Positions 6,092-17,323 of a DNA stretch of 64,000 nucleotides are shown here, in pieces. Numbering within the stretch: position 1 is the stretch's first letter; every line of letters begins with the position of its first letter. Source of the stretch: Thermodesulfobacteriota bacterium (GTDB taxonomy: Bacteria; Desulfobacterota; Binatia; UBA9968; JAJDTQ01). The position numbers and the translations under genes were made by a program. The notes beneath the pieces were generated by a model. It was given only the letters and a program-made list of their open reading frames with translations, ran no database searches and had not been told where the DNA came from. The DNA lies in assembly GCA_965116735.1 (NCBI GenBank), contig OZ220712.1:87378-151377 (forward strand), written 5' to 3'.

Positions 6092-7273
6092 ATGGACCCG
6101 ATACTCAACCCATACGCGCCGGGAGCCGGCACGCAACCCCCCGAGTTGGCTGGCCGTAGTGAAATCCGCGAATCGGCACGAATCGCACTGGAGCGTACCA
6201 GAGCAGGACGGCCGACCAAGAGCATCATGATGGTGGGTTTGCGTGGCGTCGGCAAGACCGTGCTCCTGGATGTCATCCGGGAGAATGCCGAGTCCAGCGG
6301 CATCTGCGCAGTGAGAATCGAGGCGCCGGAAAACAGGTCCCTTCCTTCCATCCTCGCGCCTCAACTCCGGATTGCGCTGTTGAAGCTCTCGAACAGGCAG
6401 GCCGCAAGGCAACTGGCGCAGAGGGCCTTGCGGGGACTCGCTGGATTCGTTGCTGCTCTCAGGGTCAAGTTCCAGGATATCGAGGTGGGTTTGGATCTCA
6501 AACCGGAACCCGGTTTGGCGGACAACGGAGACCTCGAGGCCGACTTGCAGGACTTGTTCGAAGCCGTCGGCGCCGCGGCCAAGGCGGACGGTACCTGTGT
6601 TGCCCTCTTTGTCGATGAGCTTCAGTACGTGGAAGAGGATCAGTTGGCCGCGTTGATCACCGCGTTGCACCGCACATCTCAGCGGCGCCTTCCCGTGGTG
6701 ATGCTGGGTGCGGGACTGCCCCAGTTACGGGCGCATATGGGAAAGGCGAAGTCGTACGCCGAACGGCTGTTCGAGTTTCCCGAGATCGGACCGCTGTCGC
6801 GTGAAGATGCCAAGGTTGCCATCGCCAAGCCGGCGAAGGACGAAGGAGTCGGTATAGAGCCCGACGCGCTTGATGCCGTCGTTGCCCGAACTGAAGGGTA
6901 TCCCTACTTCCTGCAGGAATGGGGAAAGCACTTGTGGAATGTGGCCGAGGGTTCTCCGATTACGATCTCAAGCGTTGAGGTCGCATCCAGACAGGCCATC
7001 GCCGACCTCGACGAGAGTTTCTTTCTGATGAGGTTCGACAGGCTTACGCCGACGGAGAAAAAGTATCTTCGGGCCATGGCCCAACTCGGCCCCGGACCAC
7101 ATCGTTCCGGGGACATCGCCGACGAGTTGGGCCGCAAGGTAACCTCTCTCGCCCCCATTCGGAGTCACTTGCTCAACAAGGGCATGATTTGGAGTCCGAG
7201 TCATGGAGACACGGCCTTTACCGTGCCGATGTTTGACGAATTCATGCGGCGGATTATGCCGGGCGATCAGTGA
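6092..7273 (+). CDS. AAA-family (AAA_16-like) P-loop ATPase with probable C-terminal winged-helix domain
   Basis: NPYAPGAGTQPPELAGR N-terminus, Walker A GLRGVGKT, Walker B LFVDE, GYPYFLQ, HTH-like C-terminus. Confidence 0.85.
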   Translation: MDPILNPYAPGAGTQPPELAGRSEIRESARIALERTRAGRPTKSIMMVGLRGVGKTVLLDVIRENAESSGICAVRIEAPENRSLPSILAPQLRIALLKLSNRQAARQLAQRALRGLAGFVAALRVKFQDIEVGLDLKPEPGLADNGDLEADLQDLFEAVGAAAKADGTCVALFVDELQYVEEDQLAALITALHRTSQRRLPVVMLGAGLPQLRAHMGKAKSYAERLFEFPEIGPLSREDAKVAIAKPAKDEGVGIEPDALDAVVARTEGYPYFLQEWGKHLWNVAEGSPITISSVEVASRQAIADLDESFFLMRFDRLTPTEKKYLRAMAQLGPGPHRSGDIADELGRKVTSLAPIRSHLLNKGMIWSPSHGDTAFTVPMFDEFMRRIMPGDQ

Positions 7274-7334
7274 CGGTAGTCTATTATCGTACGCACGGCC
7301 ATTCAAGAATCTGAGTCAAAGAAGGGGAGGAACT

Positions 7335-7628
7335 ATGGCAGGTAAGAAGAGCGGTCAGTTCAGCAAGGAGGGAATCGAAGCCCTCGCGAAGGACAAGCCC
7401 GTGGTGTATGTGATCGAGGGCAACAGGAGAAACAATCTGTATACGGGTGTCGCAAAGAGAGGCCGGGTCGCGGAGCGTTTGAAGGAGCACCTGCCAAGTG
7501 GCCCAGACCCCGTAACCGGTGGTAGGAGAGTGCGGATTCAGCAAAAGCCAAGCATAGCGGAAGCGAAAGAGTCCGAGGCAAGAATAATCAAGCGAAGCAA
7601 GCCACCTCAGAACAAGAAGGGAAAATGA
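7335..7628 (+). CDS. Small stand-alone GIY-YIG nuclease-domain protein (97 aa)
   Basis: GGAGG RBS then ATG 7335; VVYVI..LYTGVA..R..RLKEH..E..II..KPPQN matches the GIY-YIG/UvrC-N pattern. Confidence 0.7.
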   Translation: MAGKKSGQFSKEGIEALAKDKPVVYVIEGNRRNNLYTGVAKRGRVAERLKEHLPSGPDPVTGGRRVRIQQKPSIAEAKESEARIIKRSKPPQNKKGK

Positions 7629-7666
7629 TCCACCACGCAGGGTAAGCATCCTTTAGGCGAAACGTC

Positions 7667-10600
7667 ATGTCCAACCCGTTCTTTGAGCAGCCGGTCCTGA
7701 ACTCCCCTTACGAGTATCCCGACCGCCATTGGGAGCTGGACGAGACCGGACAACCGACACAGGAGATTGTCGACCGCCGGAGGCCGGCTCAGTTCATCAC
7801 GCCGATCCCGAAACCAAAGAAACGCAGGGGTTCCGGGACGGATCAGACCGCACCGTTGTTCAGCGACGGGAAAGGTCTTTCCACGGAGAACCAGCAATAC
7901 GAACTCACCGCCATCATCAACAGCGTGCGCCAGCAGGTCGACCGGTGGCGCAGCATACCGAACCCGAATCAGTGGCAGGTAACGCCGGAAACGGCCCGGC
8001 TTCTCCAGCACTGGCGGCACCACCGCTATAGCGGCGTCCGGCCCTTCTTTTGCCAGGTCGAGGCGGTGGAGACGGTTATCTGGTTGACCGAGGTCGCTCC
8101 TCAGGCCGGTCGCACGGGCAGACGGTTCCTCGACCACTTGGCAGACGCCAACCACGAGGCCAATCCCGAGCTGCAAAGGTTGGCGCTCAAGCTGGCCACC
8201 GGCGCGGGCAAGACCACCGTTATGGCGATGCTGATCGCCTGGCAGACCGTCAACGCGGTGCGTCACCCTCAGAGCCGCCGGTTCACGCGCGGCTTCCTGG
8301 TGGTGACGCCCGGCATCACCATCAAGGACCGCTTGAGGGTGCTCCAGCCCAACGATCCCGACAGCTACTATCAGAGCCGCGAGTTGGTCCCGAACGACAT
8401 GCTCCCGGACCTCCAGAAGGCACGGATCGTCATCACCAACTACCACGCCTTCAAGCTGCGTGACCGCATGGCTCTTTCCAAGGGGGGCCGCTCCCTTCTC
8501 CAGGGCAGGGGCGAGGTGCTCGCGACCATGGAAACCGAAGGCCAGATGCTTCAGCGGGTCATGCCTGAACTCATGGGCATCAAGAACATTCTTGCGCTGA
8601 ACGACGAGGCGCACCACTGCTACCGGGAAAAGCCGGGGGAGGACGAGGAAGGAGCGCTCAAGGGCGACGACAGAAAGGAAGCCGACAAGAACACCGAGGC
8701 CGCCCGGTTGTGGATATCGGGGCTCGAAGCGGTGACGCGAAAGCTTGGTGTCAACCGGGTGTTGGATCTCTCGGCGACGCCGTTCTTCCTTCGAGGTTCA
8801 GGGTACGCCGAGGGGACGTTGTTCCCCTGGACCATGAACGATTTCTCGCTCATGGACGCCATCGAATGCGGCATCGTCAAGCTTCCCCGGGTGCCGGTCG
8901 CCGACAACATCCCCGGCGACGAGATGCCCAAGTTCCGCAACCTTTGGGAGAACATCCGCGGCGCAATGCCGAAGAAGGGGCGCGGCAAAGGGGCCGGTCT
9001 CGACCCGCTGGAGCTTCCGACCCTTCTCAAGACCGCGCTGGAGGCCCTGTACGGACACTACAAGAAGCACTACGAGTCCATGGCGGGCGCGGGTATCGAG
9101 GTGCCGCCATGCTTCATCGTGGTCTGCAACAACACATCCACCTCCAAGCTCGTCTACGACTACATATCGGGGTTTCACCGCGAGAATCCCGATGGCTCGA
9201 CCACGCTGCAGAACGGCAGCCTGGAGTTGTTCCGCAACTTCGACGAGCACGGCAACCCCTACCCGCGGCCCCGTACTCTGCTGATCGACAGCGAGCAACT
9301 GGAGTCCGGCGACACCCTGGACAAGGACTTCCGCAAGATGGCGGCGGAAGAGATCGAGCGTTTCCGGCGGGAGATCACGGAGCGTACCGGCGACCGTCAG
9401 AAGGCGGAGAACATCAGCGATCAGGACCTTCTTCGGGAGGTCATGAACACCGTCGGCAAGCCGGGGCGCCTGGGGAGTTCGATTCGGTGCGTGGTGTCCG
9501 TGTCCATGCTGACCGAGGGCTGGGACGCGAACACGGTGAGTCACGTGCTCGGCGTGCGGGCTTTCGGGACGCAGTTGCTCTGCGAACAGGTGGTCGGGCG
9601 GGCGTTGCGTCGCCAGTCCTACGACCTCAATGACGACGACCTCTTCGACGTCGAATACGCGGACGTGCTGGGCATACCTTTCGACTTTACCGCAAAGCCC
9701 GTGTTGGTCCCGACCAAGCCGCCGCGAGAGACGGTCCAGGTCAAGGCCGAGCGGCCCGAACGCGATGCTCTCGAAATCAGCTTCCCGCGTGTCGCGGGGT
9801 ACCGCGTGGAGTTGCCCGAGGATAGGCTGACCGCCGCCTTCAACGAGGACTCCGTGCTGGAGCTGACGCCCGCTCTCGTGGGACCCTCCATCACGCGGAA
9901 CCAGGGCATCATTGGCGAGGCCGTCGACCTCAACCTGGTTCATACAGGAGACATGCGGCCATCGACGCTGCTCTTTCACCTGACACAACGGTTGCTCACC
10001 ACCAAGTGGCGTGATCCGGGCGAAGAGCCCAAGCTCCATCTTTTCGGACAACTCAAACGCTTGACCAGGCAGTGGCTTGACCGCTGTCTTGTCTGCAAGG
10101 GCAACACCTACCCGGCCCAGCTCATGTACCAGGAGCTGGCCGACATGGCGTGCGAGCGCATCACCGCCGCCATCACCCGCGCCGAGATGAGCAGTAGCCG
10201 GCCCGTGAAGGCGGTGCTGGACCCCTACAACGCGGTGGGTTCTACAGCCCACGTGAACTTCACCACCACCAAGACAAGCCGTTGGAAGACGGATCCAAGC
10301 CGCTGCCATGTCAACTGGGTGGTCCTCGACAGCGACTGGGAGGCCGAGTTCTGCCGCGTGGCCGAATCCCATCCGCGGGTAAGGGCGTACGTCAAGAACC
10401 ATAGCCTCGGCTTTGAGGTTCCTTATCGCTACGCCTCCGAGGCACGGACCTACATCCCGGACTTCATCGTTCTCGTGGACGACGGTCACGGGGACGAGGA
10501 TCTCTTGCGTCTCGTCGTCGAGATCAAGGGCTATCGCGGGGAGGACGCCAAGGAGAAGAAGGCTGCCATGGACACCTATTGGGTGCCGGGAGTCAACCGT

Positions 10601-10816
10601 CACGGCTGCTACGGCCGCTGGGCATTCGCCGAGTTCACGGAGGTGTACGAAATTCAGACAGACTTCGAGGCGAGAGTCGAGGAAGCGTTCAACGACATGA
10701 TCAAACGGTGTCTTCCGGAGGCAGAAGTCGAAGCTGCGCAGTGGCTCGCTGCGGCAGGTGGCAGCGGACCGGACATGGCCGACGTTCCGCGGCGACGCAG
10801 CGAGATCGACGGATGA
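7667..10816 (+). CDS. res: Type III-like restriction endonuclease/helicase (Res, BPTD_3080-like) with a VapB-like C-terminal extension
   Basis: Walker A ATGAGKT, NDEAHH, LTEGWD, EQVVGRALRR, PD-(D/E)xK nuclease IPDFIV..VEIKG; about 35 extra C-terminal residues. Confidence 0.9.
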   Translation: MSNPFFEQPVLNSPYEYPDRHWELDETGQPTQEIVDRRRPAQFITPIPKPKKRRGSGTDQTAPLFSDGKGLSTENQQYELTAIINSVRQQVDRWRSIPNPNQWQVTPETARLLQHWRHHRYSGVRPFFCQVEAVETVIWLTEVAPQAGRTGRRFLDHLADANHEANPELQRLALKLATGAGKTTVMAMLIAWQTVNAVRHPQSRRFTRGFLVVTPGITIKDRLRVLQPNDPDSYYQSRELVPNDMLPDLQKARIVITNYHAFKLRDRMALSKGGRSLLQGRGEVLATMETEGQMLQRVMPELMGIKNILALNDEAHHCYREKPGEDEEGALKGDDRKEADKNTEAARLWISGLEAVTRKLGVNRVLDLSATPFFLRGSGYAEGTLFPWTMNDFSLMDAIECGIVKLPRVPVADNIPGDEMPKFRNLWENIRGAMPKKGRGKGAGLDPLELPTLLKTALEALYGHYKKHYESMAGAGIEVPPCFIVVCNNTSTSKLVYDYISGFHRENPDGSTTLQNGSLELFRNFDEHGNPYPRPRTLLIDSEQLESGDTLDKDFRKMAAEEIERFRREITERTGDRQKAENISDQDLLREVMNTVGKPGRLGSSIRCVVSVSMLTEGWDANTVSHVLGVRAFGTQLLCEQVVGRALRRQSYDLNDDDLFDVEYADVLGIPFDFTAKPVLVPTKPPRETVQVKAERPERDALEISFPRVAGYRVELPEDRLTAAFNEDSVLELTPALVGPSITRNQGIIGEAVDLNLVHTGDMRPSTLLFHLTQRLLTTKWRDPGEEPKLHLFGQLKRLTRQWLDRCLVCKGNTYPAQLMYQELADMACERITAAITRAEMSSSRPVKAVLDPYNAVGSTAHVNFTTTKTSRWKTDPSRCHVNWVVLDSDWEAEFCRVAESHPRVRAYVKNHSLGFEVPYRYASEARTYIPDFIVLVDDGHGDEDLLRLVVEIKGYRGEDAKEKKAAMDTYWVPGVNRHGCYGRWAFAEFTEVYEIQTDFEARVEEAFNDMIKRCLPEAEVEAAQWLAAAGGSGPDMADVPRRRSEIDG

Positions 10817-11190
10817 TCCTGGTCGACACCTCGGTCTGGATTGATCACTTTCGCAGTCCGGAGCCATCTCTCCAGGAACACTTGGCCGCTGGCCAAGTCC
10901 TGATGCACTCCATGGTTATTGGGGAACTCGCCTGCGGCAACTTGCCCAGGAGAAACGACACCTTGCAAAGATTGGCGTCACTGTCGAGAATCGTCGAGTT
11001 GGATCACGGTGAGGTGCTGCAACAGGTCGAGGGCCGAAGACTTATGGGCCGTGGCATCGGGTTTGTCGATGCTCACCTGATTTGCTCGGTACTGAACCGG
11101 AGAGGGGCGTCACTTTGGACTCGGGATCGACGCTTGAAGAACATCGCAGACGATCTCGGCATCGCGTTTCCGGAACAAGCTAGGGGGTAG
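10813..11190 (+). CDS. vapC: VapC-family PIN-domain ribonuclease toxin (125 aa)
   Basis: MILVDTSVWIDH, IGELACG, GIGFVDAHL, LWTRD; acidic residues D5/E38/D86/D105 intact; ATGA overlap with res stop. Confidence 0.9.
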   Translation: MILVDTSVWIDHFRSPEPSLQEHLAAGQVLMHSMVIGELACGNLPRRNDTLQRLASLSRIVELDHGEVLQQVEGRRLMGRGIGFVDAHLICSVLNRRGASLWTRDRRLKNIADDLGIAFPEQARG

Positions 11191-11256
11191 GTGACGACGG
11201 AAGTCGTTGCGGCAGTTGACGCGAGACGACGGAAGACACTGGAAAGGCTGTGATCA

Positions 11257-14064
11257 ATGGCGAGGGCGCGTAAATCAACGCGAAAAGCCGTGGAGAGTCT
11301 CACCCACGGCAAGGCGTCACGAAAGAATATCCCCACGGCTGAATATCAGCCTCTGATGAAGAAGGACGATGAGAGTCCGATCCAGGTCGCCTATGAGCGC
11401 CGCAACCGAGACCTCGACCCACAACTCGTCTGGCGCGGCAAGGATTTGCAGGACTGGTCCGACCTCGTTGTACAGGCGCCGCCGCTGTTCATACAGGAAA
11501 AGGTTCACCCGAAGGCGCTGATCGAGGATCTCCTGCGCAGAAGCAAGCAAGGGGAACAGGCGGGTGACGAGCCCGGTTTCCAGCCGGATCTGTTCGCCGA
11601 TTTCAACGGTCTTCCTTCCGAGGACGCCAAGACCGAGTTCTACCAGCACGATGCCAACTGGTCGAACCGGATGATCCTGGGCGACAGCCTGCAGGTGATG
11701 GCTTCGCTGGCGGAGAGGGAAGGGCTGCGCGGCAAGGTGCAGTGCATCTACATCGACCCGCCCTACGGCATCAAGTTCAACTCCAACTTCCAGTGGTCAA
11801 CCACCAGCCGCGACGTCAAAGACGGCAATGCGCAGCACATCACCCGCGAGCCGGAACAGGTGAAGGCGTTTCGGGATACGTGGCGGGATGGGATTCACTC
11901 GTATCTGACGTATTTGCGGGATCGGCTCACTCTGGCGCGGGATTTGTTGGCTGAAAGCGGGTCGGTGTTTGTGCAGATCGGGGACGAAAATGTGCATCGG
12001 GTGCGGGCAGTGATGGATGAGGTGTTTGGTGGCGATAGTTTCGTTACGGAGATCAAATTCAAAACGACAAGCAACCGAACCTCGGAGTTCATCCCTACGG
12101 TCTTTGATTCCATAGTCTTCTACGCTAAAGATCGAGACAAGCTGAAGTTCCGTCGGCCATTTCGTTCAAAAGGCTACGATGAAGTAACTGAAGATTCTTA
12201 CGGTTGCGTAGAGGAGTCGCTCAACTCCTGGAGAAGACTGACCAGACACGAAAAGGACCATCCGAACCAAGCAGAGAAAAATGGGCCGCTGTTCGGTTTA
12301 AGTGATCTGACTTCGTCCCACGAATATACAAGGGAACCGTTCCAGTGGTTCCATAAGTCATTCACTACAAGGCGGCGTTACTGGTCGACTTCACATGATG
12401 GGTTAACTCGGCTGGGTAGAGCGAATCGTCTTTGCGACGTTAACGGCACCCTTCGATACAAGCGTCTATTCAAAGATACGCATGTTTTCGCATTGGACAA
12501 TATCTGGCATGAGTTAGGTAGTGGTTCTCAGACAGAAGAACGGACCTACGTCGTCCAAACGCTTTCGAAAGCCGTCGAACGCTGCATCCTCATGGCCACC
12601 GACCCTGGTGACCTCGTCCTCGACCCTACCTGCGGCTCTGGCACCGCCGCGTACGTCGCCGAGCAGTGGGGCCGCCGCTGGATCACCATCGACACCTCTC
12701 GCGTTGCCCTCGCGCTCGCTCGCGCGCGCATCATGGGCGCCCGTTATCCCTACTACCTGCTCGCTGACAGCCGCGACGGCCAAATCAAAGAAGCTGAGCT
12801 CGTCCGTAAAGCCCCCTCGCATGCGCCCACGTATGACGACATCCGACAAGGCTTCGTTTACGAGCGCGTCCCCCACATCACACTTAAGTCCATCGCGAAC
12901 AACGCTGAAATCGACGTGATCTGGGAAAAATTCCAGGAAACGCTGGAGCCGCTACGTCAGGACTTGAACGACGCGCTCGGCGCATCCTACGAGGAATGGG
13001 AAATTCCGCGCGACCCGGATGAGGCTTGGTCTGCGAAGGCGCGAGGTATTCACGCGGACTGGTGGGAACAACGCATCGCCCGGCAAAAGGAAATCGATGC
13101 CTCCATCGCCGCTAAGGCCGACTACGAATACCTCTACGACAAACCATACGAAGACGGCAAGAAGGTTCGCGTCGCCGGCCCCTTTACGGTGGAGAGTCTA
13201 TCGCCACACCGCCTGCTAGCCGTCGATGAACACGATGAACTCATCGACAAGGCCGCCGAAAGCACGGTCGAATACGGCGACCGGCAGGACTTCGCCGCGA
13301 TGATCCTCGAGAATCTCAAGACCTCCGGCGTCCAGCAGGCTCACAAAGAGGACCGCATCGCCTTCTCCAGTATCAGACCCTGGCCCGGGAGTTTCATTTG
13401 CGCCGAGGCAACCTACGTCGAAGGCAACGCCGACTCGGGTCCTAGAAAGCGCGCCGGCGTCTTCATCGGCCCAGAATTCGGAACCGTCTCCCGCCCCGAT
13501 CTCGTATCGGCGGTGCGCGAGGCCGCCGACGCCGACTTCGACGTGCTGATCGCCTGTGCCTTCAACTACGACGCTCACGCTTCGGAGTTCAACAAACTCG
13601 GCCGCATCCCAGTCCTCAAGGCCCGCATGAACGCTGACCTCCACATGGCCGACGACCTCAAGAACACCGGCAAAGGCAATCTCTTCGTCATCTTTGGCGA
13701 ACCGGACATCGACATTCTCGACGCGGAGAACGGACAGATCCAAGTCAAGGTTAACGGCGTGGATGTGTTCCACCCCAACACCGGAGAGATCCGCAGTGAC
13801 GGCGCCGACGGTATCGCCTGCTGGTTCATCGATACCGACTACAACGAGGAAAGCTTCTTCGTCCGCCACGCCTACTTCCTTGGCGCCAACGACCCGTACA
13901 AGGCACTCAAGACCACCCTCAAGGCCGAGATCAACGAGGAGGCGTGGGAGACGCTACACAGCGACACTTCCCGGCCTTTCGACAAACCTGCCTCCGGCCG
14001 CATCGCCGTCAAGGTAATCAATCACTTCGGGGACGAAGTGATGAAAGTATTTCGAGCCTATTGA
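11257..14064 (+). CDS. mod: Type III-like N6-adenine DNA methyltransferase (Mod)
   Basis: IYIDPPYGIKF catalytic motif, VLDPTCGSGT SAM-binding motif, central variable region; current stop supplied by IS630. Confidence 0.92.
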   Translation: MARARKSTRKAVESLTHGKASRKNIPTAEYQPLMKKDDESPIQVAYERRNRDLDPQLVWRGKDLQDWSDLVVQAPPLFIQEKVHPKALIEDLLRRSKQGEQAGDEPGFQPDLFADFNGLPSEDAKTEFYQHDANWSNRMILGDSLQVMASLAEREGLRGKVQCIYIDPPYGIKFNSNFQWSTTSRDVKDGNAQHITREPEQVKAFRDTWRDGIHSYLTYLRDRLTLARDLLAESGSVFVQIGDENVHRVRAVMDEVFGGDSFVTEIKFKTTSNRTSEFIPTVFDSIVFYAKDRDKLKFRRPFRSKGYDEVTEDSYGCVEESLNSWRRLTRHEKDHPNQAEKNGPLFGLSDLTSSHEYTREPFQWFHKSFTTRRRYWSTSHDGLTRLGRANRLCDVNGTLRYKRLFKDTHVFALDNIWHELGSGSQTEERTYVVQTLSKAVERCILMATDPGDLVLDPTCGSGTAAYVAEQWGRRWITIDTSRVALALARARIMGARYPYYLLADSRDGQIKEAELVRKAPSHAPTYDDIRQGFVYERVPHITLKSIANNAEIDVIWEKFQETLEPLRQDLNDALGASYEEWEIPRDPDEAWSAKARGIHADWWEQRIARQKEIDASIAAKADYEYLYDKPYEDGKKVRVAGPFTVESLSPHRLLAVDEHDELIDKAAESTVEYGDRQDFAAMILENLKTSGVQQAHKEDRIAFSSIRPWPGSFICAEATYVEGNADSGPRKRAGVFIGPEFGTVSRPDLVSAVREAADADFDVLIACAFNYDAHASEFNKLGRIPVLKARMNADLHMADDLKNTGKGNLFVIFGEPDIDILDAENGQIQVKVNGVDVFHPNTGEIRSDGADGIACWFIDTDYNEESFFVRHAYFLGANDPYKALKTTLKAEINEEAWETLHSDTSRPFDKPASGRIAVKVINHFGDEVMKVFRAY

Positions 14065-15149
14065 GACTCGTAAAATATAGTGACAACAAATAAGAACGAT
14101 GGTATAGTGGCTTGATGGGAAATCCAGTTGGAGTGAGACGGGACTTTGAAGCCTTGGAGCAGCGGCGGATGGAGGCGGGGAGGCTTTTGAAGCGAGGGCT
14201 GTCGGAGGCGGAGGTGTCGCGTCGGGTGGGAGTGCACCGCCAGTCGGTGAATCGATGGGCGCGGCAGTTGGCGGAGGGAGGCCGGGCGGGGCTCAAGCAG
14301 GCGGGGCGAGCGGGACGCAAGCCGCGGCTGAGTGCGGCGGACGTGAAGAAGGTCGAGGGAGGCTTGAAACGGGGACCCGAAGCCCTGGGGTACGACACCA
14401 GCCTGTGGACCGCGAGGCGAGTGGCGCACTTGATCGAGGAGGTCTGCGACGTCCGGTACCACCCTGGCCATGTCTGGCGGCTCTTGCGACAGTTGGGGTG
14501 GAGTTGCCAGCGACCGACGGGGCGTGCGTTGGAACGGGATGAAGAGGCGATCCGGCAGTGGAAGAAGAAGCGATGGCCGGAGCTTAAAAAAAAGCCCGCA
14601 ACGAGGGTCGCACCATAGTGTTCGTGGACGAGAGCGGGCTGAGCGAGCGGCCGAACCGGTATCGCACGTGGTCGCCGCGGGGACAGACGCCGGTGCTGCA
14701 ATATCACTTCAACTGGAAGAGCCTCTCGGCCATTGCCGGGGTCACCTGGTGGCGCTTCTACTTCCGACTGTATCCGGGAGCCATCAAGAGTCCGCAGGTC
14801 ATCGAATTCCTGAAGCACTTGATGCGGCATGTCCCGGGGCCGTTGCTGGTGGTGTGGGACGGGCTGCCCAGCCACCGGAGCCGCGCGGTGCGAGACTTCG
14901 TTGCCGCCACCGAGGGCGTGTTGGTGCTGGAACGACTGCCGGCCTATGCGCCGGAGCTGAATCCGGTCGAGTACCTCTGGGGATACTGGAAGCATCACGA
15001 ACTACCCAACTTCTGCGCCAGGGACTTCGCTCAACTCAGCCACCATGCTCGCCGCGCCCTTCAACGAATGCGCCGCAGGCCACGTCTCGTTACTGCTTTC
15101 TGGAAACAGGCAAGCCTGTTCTGATGTCACTATATTATGCAATACTCAA
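14061..15149 (+). mobile_element. IS630-family insertion sequence, copy 1 (1089 bp)
   Basis: Imperfect 25-bp TIRs TTGAGACTCGTAAAATATAGTGACA / TGTCACTATATTATGCAATACTCAA; TA duplicated (14059-60, 15150-51) in a CTAG target. Confidence 0.93.
14115..15124 (+). CDS. IS630 transposase, two ORFs joined by a -1 frameshift
   Basis: HTH ORF then FVDE..VWDG..APELNPVE DDE ORF in the -1 frame; slippery CTT-A8-G at about 14583-14594. Confidence 0.9.
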
Positions 15150-15297: not shown

Positions 15298-16386
15298 TTG
15301 AGACTCGTAAAATATAGTGACAACAAATAAGAACGATGGTATAGTGGCTTGATGGGAAATCCAGTTGGAGTGAGACGGGACTTTGAAGCCTTGGAGCAGC
15401 GGCGGATGGAGGCGGGGAGGCTTTTGAAGCGAGGGCTGTCGGAGGCGGAGGTGTCGCGTCGGGTGGGAGTGCACCGCCAGTCGGTGAATCGATGGGCGCG
15501 GCAGTTGGCGGAGGGAGGCCGGGCGGGGCTCAAGCAGGCGGGGCGAGCGGGACGCAAGCCGCGGCTGAGTGCGGCGGACGTGAAGAAGGTCGAGGGAGGC
15601 TTGAAACGGGGACCCGAAGCCCTGGGGTACGACACCAGCCTGTGGACCGCGAGGCGAGTGGCGCACTTGATCGAGGAGGTCTGCGACGTCCGGTACCACC
15701 CTGGCCATGTCTGGCGGCTCTTGCGACAGTTGGGGTGGAGTTGCCAGCGACCGACGGGGCGTGCGTTGGAACGGGATGAAGAGGCGATCCGGCAGTGGAA
15801 GAAGAAGCGATGGCCGGAGCTTAAAAAAAAGCCCGCAACGAGGGTCGCACCATAGTGTTCGTGGACGAGAGCGGGCTGAGCGAGCGGCCGAACCGGTATC
15901 GCACGTGGTCGCCGCGGGGACAGACGCCGGTGCTGCAATATCACTTCAACTGGAAGAGCCTCTCGGCCATTGCCGGGGTCACCTGGTGGCGCTTCTACTT
16001 CCGACTGTATCCGGGAGCCATCAAGAGTCCGCAGGTCATCGAATTCCTGAAGCACTTGATGCGGCATGTCCCGGGGCCGTTGCTGGTGGTGTGGGACGGG
16101 CTGCCCAGCCACCGGAGCCGCGCGGTGCGAGACTTCGTTGCCGCCACCGAGGGCGTGTTGGTGCTGGAACGACTGCCGGCCTATGCGCCGGAGCTGAATC
16201 CGGTCGAGTACCTCTGGGGATACTGGAAGCATCACGAACTACCCAACTTCTGCGCCAGGGACTTCGCTCAACTCAGCCACCATGCTCGCCGCGCCCTTCA
16301 ACGAATGCGCCGCAGGCCACGTCTCGTTACTGCTTTCTGGAAACAGGCAAGCCTGTTCTGATGTCACTATATTATGCAATACTCAA
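15298..16386 (+). mobile_element. IS630-family insertion sequence, copy 2 (apparently identical to copy 1)
   Basis: Same TIRs and identical translated ORFs; TA duplication in CTAG (gaagC-TA..TA-Gaagcc). Confidence 0.93.
15352..16361 (+). CDS. IS630 transposase, -1 frameshift
   Basis: Translations identical to copy 1. Confidence 0.9.
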
Positions 16387-16505: not shown

Positions 16506-17323
16506 GGCCTGTTAACACTAATCACTATCGTAATGCCTCAACAATGAGCGAGAAGTGGATGAAGCCGAGGAAGACCACGTCGAGCTTCTCGAAGCGGGAG
16601 AAGATGCGCCGGAATCCCTTGAGACGGCGAAACAACCTCTCGATTTCATTGCGGCGCTTGTACATGTGGCGATCATACATCCATGGGTCGAGTCGCGTCG
16701 ACAACGGCGGCACCACGGGGATAAACCCTAGATCGAGGGCCAACTGGCGCGTCTCGTTGCCTTCGTACGCTCGGTCCATGACCAGCGAGGGACTGTCATG
16801 CTGCTGACCCAAGCGATTCAGCAGCTTCCGTCCTTCTGGGGCGTCGTGGGCCTGTCCAGGGGAGAGCGAGAAGGTGATGGCCGTTCGAGCATCCGCGGCA
16901 ACCATATGAATCTTGGTGGTCCAGCCTCCTCGGGATTTGCCGATGGCTTGGGGGCCGTTTTTTTTAGCGCCCCCGTCCCGTCGGGATGGACCTTGACGAT
17001 GGTGCTGTCCAGCGACACCGCCTCGATCTTGATGCGCACCATCTGCTCCCTCTGGAGCAGCTCGAACACCTGGTCCAGCACCCCGTTCTTCGACCAGCGA
17101 TTCATCCGGGTATAGATCGTGTGCCAATTGCCGAACCGAGCCGGTAACCCTCGCCACTTGCAACCATGCTCCGCCACATACAAAATAGCGTTGAGCACCT
17201 GTCGGTTCGAAAGGCTCACATTCCCTCGCTGCACCGGGAGGTACCCTGCAATGCGCTCATATTGCGCTTCCGTCAATTCCATCCCATGAGCATAGCATAT
17301 CTTCAATTTAGTGTTAACAGGCC
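16506..17323 (-). mobile_element. IS5-family (IS427-like) insertion sequence, 818 bp
   Basis: Perfect 16-bp TIR GGCCTGTTAACACTAA flanked by duplicated CTAG (16502-05, 17324-27). Confidence 0.9.
16525..17282 (-). CDS. IS5-family transposase, two ORFs joined by a frameshift
   Basis: GCKWRGLP..FGNWHTIY.R, LDSTIVKVH, GKSRGGWTTKIH, DRAY, YKRRNEIERLF; A8 run at the junction. Confidence 0.9.

Follow-up and report, generated by a model that had tools for sequence, protein, structure and literature searches.

A VapB-type antitoxin tail on a type III-like restriction subunit encoded directly in front of a vapC toxin gene: a predicted hybrid of restriction-modification and VapBC

Restriction-modification (R-M) systems and toxin-antitoxin modules cluster together, and both have been called addictive. 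To our knowledge, a direct protein link between an R-M system and a toxin is documented essentially for one case, that of PrrC and EcoprrI. In the available parts of the reports on this pair, the RNase PrrC is silenced by association with EcoprrI, which is encoded at the same locus, and is freed when EcoprrI is inhibited (PMC1484252, PMC2610378). Here we describe a locus of a Thermodesulfobacteriota bacterium (assembly GCA_965116735.1, contig OZ220712.1, positions 87,378 to 151,377; this whole stretch of 64,000 nucleotides is called the window) in which the restriction subunit Res of a type III-like R-M system ends in an extra tail resembling the toxin-binding end of a VapB antitoxin, and in which the gene for a VapC toxin overlaps the stop codon of res. 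In our judgement the locus is probably a hybrid of a type III-like R-M system and a VapBC module, with the restriction subunit as the antitoxin.

The closest relatives of the toxin part are the canonical VapBC modules with a VapB of the DUF2191 (PF09957) type. They have in common with the locus the VapC lineage (44-59% identity to VapC of the window), the C-terminal VapB motif, the stop/start overlap and a tail that is predicted to lie over the PIN pocket; they differ in that here there is no separate antitoxin gene, the putative neutralising peptide being the C-terminus of a restriction enzyme of 1049 amino acids (aa). Classical type II toxin-antitoxin modules consist of two small separate genes with a labile, self-repressing antitoxin, which is not the arrangement found in the window; because the Res tail lacks the ribbon-helix-helix DNA-binding half, autoregulation by the antitoxin is impossible. 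In classical type III enzymes mod precedes res. The locus resembles the type III systems EcoP1I and EcoP15I in that its family matches assign a superfamily 2 (SF2) helicase and an endonuclease to Res and an N6/N4 methylase to the paired Mod, but its gene order is res, vapC, mod, its Res has the extra tail and it belongs to the little-studied BPTD_3080 family, for which a search of the literature under that name found no paper.

The likeness to PrrC and EcoprrI would lie in the proposed logic, an RNase held by a restriction enzyme, and is an analogy without a common component. PrrC is an ABC-ATPase fused to an anticodon nuclease, whereas VapC of the window is a single PIN domain of 125 aa without the ABC-ATPase N-domain and anticodon-nuclease C-domain that characterise PrrC and RloC; EcoprrI is a type Ic R-M system, for which no antitoxin-derived peptide on the restriction subunit has been described. 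A neutralising element within a larger defence gene is known from the fused CapRel-type toxin-antitoxins. The available text on the Rpn nucleases describes the same for RpnL and RpnS (PMC10327210). In both of these, toxin and antitoxin part belong to the same protein or gene, whereas here an unrelated enzyme bears the antitoxin part, and the toxin is a protein of its own. Matelska et al. (2017) found PIN toxin genes in type I R-M operons, sometimes without an antitoxin gene, and stated that a direct interaction between toxin-antitoxin and R-M components had not been shown (PMC5499597); these neighbourhoods are of type I, unlike the one described here, and the available parts of that paper mention no antitoxin tail on a restriction subunit. 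Our own literature search, in which supplements and most subscription journals were not covered, turned up no account of a restriction or methylase subunit with an antitoxin tail. What appears to be new is this tail on an R-M subunit; VapBC modules and latent toxins linked to R-M systems are known kinds. The architecture is well supported, and its function is predicted from sequence and structural modelling.

The C-terminal tail of Res and the VapC toxin

The genes res (7667..10816), vapC (10813..11190) and mod (11257..14064) are consecutive and all lie on the forward strand. Res, with SF2 helicase and PD-(D/E)xK endonuclease parts, matches the NCBIfam model NF046055 (BPTD_3080 family restriction endonuclease) with 1362 bits against a cut-off of 800, and Pfam ResIII with 35.1 bits; RE_endonuc gives 22.1 bits, slightly under its cut-off of 23.4. 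Mod (935 aa) is a type III DNA methyltransferase according to PADLOC (MTase_III PDLC03632, 1387 bits) and Pfam (N6_N4_Mtase, 6.3e-29). The alignment of NF046055 covers Res residues 6-1002 and profile positions 1-968 of 970, and tail-less relatives of Res, 80-83% identical, end 10-20 residues past a ...FN.MI.. motif. Since Res runs on for about 36-45 aa past the end of the family match and also past the ends of its tail-less relatives, about 36 residues (10706..10813, Res residues 1014-1049) are extra, as an earlier note on this DNA had claimed in saying that Res continues in frame beyond its natural end. The C-terminus of Res reads ...DFEARVEEAFNDMIKRCLPEAEVEAAQWLAAAGGSGPDMADVPRRRSEIDG.

To see what these residues resemble, the 80 closest VapC loci were taken from contigs of one genome per species, and the open reading frame (ORF) ending at each vapC start was read. 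In most of these loci the upstream partner is a VapB of 65-100 aa of the form MRTT.N.DD...ALIERESARRLA.LGGSEP.L..IPRRR. The Res tail (...EAAQWLAAAGGSGPDMADVPRRRSE...) aligns with the last 25-30 or so residues of such canonical VapBs, of which 24 C-termini were compared; the consensus common to both is E[AS]A..L..GGS.P.....PRRR, and GG and RR of the tail are invariant across 38 aligned rows. The final 29 columns of an alignment of 63 canonical VapBs were made into a profile, with fused forms excluded and 4 of the 67 non-fused loci left out by a length and start filter. With this profile, the Res ORF scores best (21.3 bits, E 6.9e-4) when all 89,057 six-frame ORFs of the genome are compared, and it is the only one below the inclusion threshold. 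The VapB C-terminal motif lies directly 5' of vapC with overlapping stop and start, and in place of the ribbon-helix-helix-like DNA-binding domain of a VapB it is the Res nuclease domain that precedes the tail; the earlier note had described the tail in the same way, as VapB-like with its N-terminal half missing. The 39-aa tail alone gave no match in Pfam or NCBIfam because it is too short, and a canonical VapB query against PDB gave weak N-terminal matches only, to VapB15 (4chg) and VapB11 (6a7v). Together, the sequence comparisons support the view that the final 30 or so residues of Res derive from the C-terminal, toxin-binding end of a VapB of the DUF2191 type.

The stop codon of res and the start codon of vapC overlap in the tetranucleotide ATGA at 10813..10816, read from the sequence as in the earlier note. 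The same ATGA overlap is present in 9 of 9 other loci with a Res tail among the best 80 VapC loci and in G423, a species of the same genus; the overlap is TGATG in two loci with a tailed methylase and GTGA in two with a tailed Zn-ribbon protein. In none of the fused loci examined does a strong Shine-Dalgarno sequence stand before vapC. The overlap in all fused loci, together with the lack of a strong Shine-Dalgarno sequence, suggests that vapC is translationally coupled to res and that Res and VapC would be made in roughly equal amounts. No separate antitoxin ORF is found in the intervals between res and vapC or between vapC and mod, which agrees with the earlier note, and neither a second copy or paralogue of vapC nor a second copy of the tail was found in the 5.0-Mb genome. 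The genome does contain a more distant second member of the Res family outside the window (G000:C1:2673960-2677049, reverse strand, 1021 bits), which is without a VapB-like tail.

Over residues 2-112 VapC matches the PIN domain PF01850 (5.2e-9; 37.2 bits, cut-off 23.6), and its relatives in the best 80 loci are 44-58% identical to it. The catalytic acids that the earlier note had listed are indeed intact: D5, E38 and D86 do not vary across 78 aligned VapC rows, D105 reaches a conservation of at least 90%, and all four are invariant in the 13-member sub-clade of VapCs with tail-bearing partners. In a tree of the same 78 rows, from which L014 (in-frame stop) and L015 and L074 (match not at the start codon) were left out, the 13 VapCs with tail-bearing partners form one clade (Shimodaira-Hasegawa-like approximate likelihood ratio test 98), and all 65 VapCs with canonical partners fall outside it. 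Compared between the window and G423, vapC shows 47 nucleotide differences and a ratio of nonsynonymous to synonymous substitution rates of 0.115; the tail, with only 4 differences, has a ratio of 0.106, and the values for Res are 0.03-0.09. vapC is under purifying selection.

A complex of VapC with the last 50 residues of Res was modelled, with both partners given as alignments, in three runs and three controls. The interface score ipSAE has a median of 0.84 (0.87, 0.84 and 0.80 in the three runs) against 0.02 for the best control; the runs share at least 96% of contacts, and the partner has a predicted local distance difference test (pLDDT) value of at least 69. The predicted contacts of the tail (10721..10795; Res residues 1019-1028, 1030-1040 and 1042-1043) begin just past the end of the family homology, and the contact residues of VapC include 6-7, 38-39, 85-86 and 105, at or beside the catalytic acids. 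The model supports binding of the tail over the catalytic pocket of VapC. The claim of the earlier note that Res itself holds VapC inactive gains support from the homology to VapB, the co-occurrence of tail and toxin and the predicted complex.

Distribution, exchange and decay of the tail-vapC unit

Nine of the best 80 VapC loci (L004, L005, L006, L007, L013, L034, L037, L039 and L043) have the order tailed Res, vapC and mod, with Res longer than 1000 aa, and they belong to the phyla Acidobacteriota, Pseudomonadota, Chloroflexota and Gemmatimonadota. In two more of the 80 (L009, L014) the tail is on a methylase, followed by vapC and then by an HKD-SNF2 helicase; at full length this tailed methylase (P0146, 1376 aa) matches PADLOC REase_MTase_IIG with 386 bits over residues 54-1332, and also DrmMI. 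In another two (L010, L020) the tail-bearing protein has a Zn-ribbon and is about 89 aa long, and vapC again follows. In this last form (L010:3735-4001 and L020, Dehalococcoidia) a Zn-ribbon CxxC...CxxC replaces the DNA-binding half of VapB, and the VapCs fall in the fused-partner clade.

With the single tail sequence as query, only 3 longer proteins came up, and the fused tails had to be combined into a profile. Applied to those members of a collection of 5.8 billion sequences that are 157 aa or longer, this profile gave 180 proteins at E <= 1, the best 120 of them all at E <= 3.8e-8. The tail lies within 15 residues of the C-terminus in 119 of these best 120. By Pfam they comprise 79 Res-type proteins, 26 of the Eco57I type and 15 without a match, 14 of which appeared by eye to be fragments of the Res or Eco57I families. 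Tail-bearing large proteins form at least 120 protein clusters.

Three tail-bearing proteins stand apart. P0155 (183 aa) has the sole internal tail of the best 120, at residues 120-145 with 38 residues beyond it, and matches no family. P0207 (182 aa, 16 member sequences, on a contig of 283 kb) is an internally deleted Res of which the N-terminus, the final 60 or so family residues (NF046055 913-967) and the VapB-like tail remain, as though there were a need to retain just the end with the tail. P0070/P0071 (1053 aa; named by one source as from an uncultured Thiodictyon sp.) has a tail, ...ARESARRLALLGGSEPQIEPIPRR.., that scores 44 bits with the canonical profile and is nearer to canonical VapB than the other fused tails; it may stem from a fusion of its own or represent an early form.

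Among the 120 Res proteins nearest to the C-terminal 170 residues of the window's Res, 17 carry the tail, including relatives that are 94%, 88% and 84% identical to it over the full length. A second conserved C-terminal extension, unrelated to the first, is present on 22 of the same 120 (P0014, P0023, P0026, P0027 and 18 more), with the consensus ...REQQAA.AMR..RELQG.L..GRK.TR.EMNER. In G415, of the same genus as the window (L202:1732-1911), mod follows directly after a tail of this second type without a toxin gene. Pfam gave no match for the second-type tail, nor did its profile find anything significant in the window's genome; like the first, it might serve to bind a partner or be antitoxin-like.

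The association of tail and toxin was followed in samples centred on Res. For the window's phylum 401 genomes were sampled, of which 47 were above the family cut-off, and 30 loci were read; tail or vapC occurred only at the window's own locus. For Acidobacteriota (401 genomes, 44 above the cut-off, 30 loci read) they occurred only in the centre genome. For the class of G462, in Gemmatimonadota (301 genomes, 26 above the cut-off, 30 loci read), 11 loci carry the tail and the same 11 carry vapC, which starts 3 nucleotides before the Res stop in each, and 19 have neither; without the centre genome, 10 of 10 tailed loci have vapC. The sampled genomes are related, and therefore these counts are not independent events. 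A fourth sample, from the window's genus and order, comprised 61 genomes and 12 loci. Within it G423 has the tail, a vapC (89.5% identical) and mod, and seven loci have neither tail nor vapC. G420, of the same genus, has an intact Res with an intact tail and a hicB-like gene in the place of vapC; G412 has a TGG-to-TGA change at the tail Trp codon and hicB/hicA in the place of vapC (Pfam 9e-7 and 1e-13); and G402 has the tail in a res whose frame spans only 444 aa, with no vapC. The expectation of the earlier note that the tail would be found only where vapC follows is borne out in the three samples of 30 loci (1, 1 and 11 tailed loci, all with vapC), but not in G420, G412 and G402, whose orphan tails look like recent cargo swaps. 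L014 retains the tail, and codon 96 of its vapC is an in-frame stop; no vapC of the fused-partner clade without a tail in front of it was seen across the loci examined. The toxin is lost while the antitoxin is kept or decaying, never the reverse, as would be expected for a toxin and its neutraliser.

The history of the unit was read from a Res tree of 85 rows, from which L090, L093, 11 loci whose longest ORF was incomplete or in the wrong frame, and the two duplicates of L005 and L013 were left out. All 20 tailed Res fall in one sub-family of 52 rows (support 100), and the window's Res is placed among tail-less Res to which it is 80-83% identical. In relatives (L085-L089, L092, L094, L096, L098, L101, L102 and L196-L205) the gap between res and mod holds varied small cargo, which differs between species of one genus; HicA/HicB in this gap was confirmed by Pfam in L197, and other cargo, judged by eye, is presumably nucleotidyltransferase/HEPN-like and Fic-like. 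The tail-vapC unit is one such cargo, whose left edge falls within res. On the simplest reading, the tail-vapC cassette arose once, was later swapped by recombination and often replaced, with the conserved 3' end of res and 5' end of mod as the sites of exchange, and moved at least once to an unrelated methylase.

On the 3' side of the R-M genes, directly after mod, lie two tandem IS630-type copies (14112-15124 and 15349-16361, forward strand), which are identical ORF pairs with a helix-turn-helix part and a transposase part (Pfam HTH_33 and DDE_3), and beyond them a DDE_Tnp_1 transposase ORF on the reverse strand (16525-17163); these elements indicate that the R-M cassette sits in a mobile, variable stretch. 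On the 5' side, a GIY-YIG protein of 97 aa (7335..7628) immediately precedes res and an AAA_16 (STAND-like) ATPase (6092..7273) lies just before it, both on the forward strand and identified by Pfam; no PADLOC model matched either. An Rfam scan of 7000-14500 matched no family.

Proposed mechanism and competing explanations

Homology, conserved architecture, co-occurrence, purifying selection and the predicted interface were each computed, and from them we infer an antitoxin role for Res and, further, a role in addiction or as an abortive back-up together with its trigger. According to the mechanism we propose, each Res that is made would bring about one VapC with it through coupled translation. 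The flexible tail of Res would wrap over the PIN active site, so that VapC would be inactive and tethered to Res. VapC, an RNase, would become free only where Res or its tail has been lost or clipped or is not replenished. The cause could be a deleted or mutated res, proteolysis, or a phage that brings about shut-off or inhibition. VapC freed in this way would arrest growth; the arrest would stabilise the R-M locus (addiction) and could serve as an abortive back-up if restriction is disabled. The tail-vapC unit behaves as a cassette that plugs in frame onto the 3' ends of large defence genes. Its hosts are of two kinds: a single sub-family of the BPTD_3080-type Res, and a type IIG/DrmMI-like methylase that resembles Eco57I and has an HKD-SNF2 helicase after it.

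Several points weigh against this interpretation. Toxicity, neutralisation and the binding of Res to VapC are all predictions from sequence and model. VapC scores 30.9 bits with the NCBIfam VapC equivalog NF047959, whose cut-off is 80, and a phmmer search of VapC against PDB sequences gave nothing at E <= 0.01. In the calibration of the tool, 58 of the 80 solved complexes attained the ipSAE mark, as did 2 of the 110 mismatched pairs, counts that hold only roughly here because our own alignments were supplied; furthermore, VapBC complexes have already been solved, and the score may therefore reflect likeness to them. The structure prediction of Res alone is of low confidence (mean pLDDT 64.7, predicted template modelling score 0.44), and within it the tail stays below pLDDT 50 (residues 1007-1021 and 1027-1049) except for a short helix at 1018-1029, which fits a flexible extension. 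In public sequencing runs (all of them contigs; one RNA run, a small share) pieces from a relative cover the 3' end of res up to 10773 and none lies over vapC. The tail changes six times on the Res tree, at least three of the changes being forced by well-supported branches, so the tail-vapC unit was often gained and lost, and the intact tail of G420 indicates that a tail can persist alone for some time. A metagenome scan with the fused-clade VapC alignment showed no fused form among the 80 matches listed, the informative ones having canonical VapB, and the fused form is accordingly a minority. Finally, classical antitoxins are labile, and a turnover of the 1049-aa Res or of its tail would be hypothetical.

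An unlikely explanation is that the tail is a docking peptide and VapC a working accessory nuclease, acting for example on phage RNA or DNA ends, and not a toxin that is held back. Both families of tail-bearing partner are large ATP-dependent DNA-targeting defence enzymes, and vapC stands between the two genes of each system, which would suit an accessory nuclease; so would the PIN genes of type I R-M operons that lack antitoxins, for which the available text states that direct interaction had not been shown (PMC5499597). However, the tail is homologous to the inhibitory part of VapB, and the model puts it over residues at or beside the four catalytic acids. In addition, decay began with the toxin, by a nonsense codon in vapC of L014 and by loss of vapC from G420 with the tail left behind.

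The earlier note had offered a second possibility, that an in-frame ATG at 10697 could give a stand-alone antitoxin peptide, so that the tail would also, or only, be translated alone and the true antitoxin would be a free peptide of about 39 aa. The ATG is there and opens 39 codons, with GAGGAA about 12-18 nucleotides upstream; the available text on the Rpn nucleases provides a precedent in the separately translated RpnS (PMC10327210), and in L010 and L020 the tail is found on a small protein of about 89 aa. On the other hand, the Met at 10697 occurs at the same place in the tail-less Res of L084-L089 and is missing at that place in the tailed L006, L007, L037, L039 and L043, no start position being conserved, which makes a stand-alone peptide improbable. 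Moreover, vapC is coupled to the full res frame by the stop/start overlap at all loci, and the tail stands in frame at the end of two unrelated large proteins and is C-terminal in nearly all of the best profile matches.

That VapC is neutralised in trans by an antitoxin encoded elsewhere, with the tail irrelevant, is very unlikely. The genome holds three other DUF2191-type VapB-like ORFs (at 3896239, 414482 and 1601426) that could be called upon, but they match the canonical profile only over its first 50 or so positions, their ends are unlike GGS...PRRR in the alignments of two of the three, the Res ORF alone passes the inclusion threshold with the C-terminal profile, and there is no vapC paralogue that would make cross-talk likely. 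A trans antitoxin was rejected on these grounds. The notion of a functionless remnant, in which vapBC cargo in the res-mod gap lost sequence by a deletion that fused the 3' end of vapB to res, could appeal to the cargo hot spot with its fast turnover within the genus and to the place of the window's Res among tail-less Res, but it is extremely improbable given a fusion kept across at least four named phyla with VapCs only 44-59% identical to the window's, a conserved tail motif, purifying selection on vapC, tail and vapC together in 10 of 10 loci of the independent class sample without its centre genome, and the tail on a second enzyme family; its narrowest form, an accidental deletion in a single genome, which the earlier note had raised as a possible objection, is contradicted by the occurrence of the fusion in 9 of the best 80 VapC loci, in a species of the same genus, in 10 more genomes of one class and in at least 120 clusters.

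Meaning for defence systems and their toxins

Beyond the hybrid of R-M and VapBC that we favour, a bolder possibility may be put forward tentatively. The tail-vapC unit could be a portable in-frame plug-in that makes large DNA-targeting defence enzymes into toxin holders, and VapC a latent second-line effector. Beyond loss of the gene, its release would follow from engagement of the motor enzyme with foreign DNA, from stalling of that enzyme, or from its blockage by a phage anti-restriction protein. If this were true, the failure of restriction would be turned directly into translational shut-down, and the unit would be a PIN-based, peptide-tethered counterpart of PrrC-EcoprrI across several phyla.

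The predicted arrangement has consequences of a more practical kind as well. Because such antitoxins are not separate genes, annotation pipelines and toxin-antitoxin finders will miss them, and the fusion of the tail accounts for some of the "orphan" PIN toxins in defence operons. The Res tail could serve as a minimal VapC inhibitor tag. The locus offers a three-gene system for studying the coupling of immunity to suicide or dormancy, in which the tail can be deleted or transplanted. Above all, it presents a link between R-M systems and toxins that is written into the sequence itself, as a toxin-binding peptide of known ancestry on the restriction subunit, in two enzyme families.

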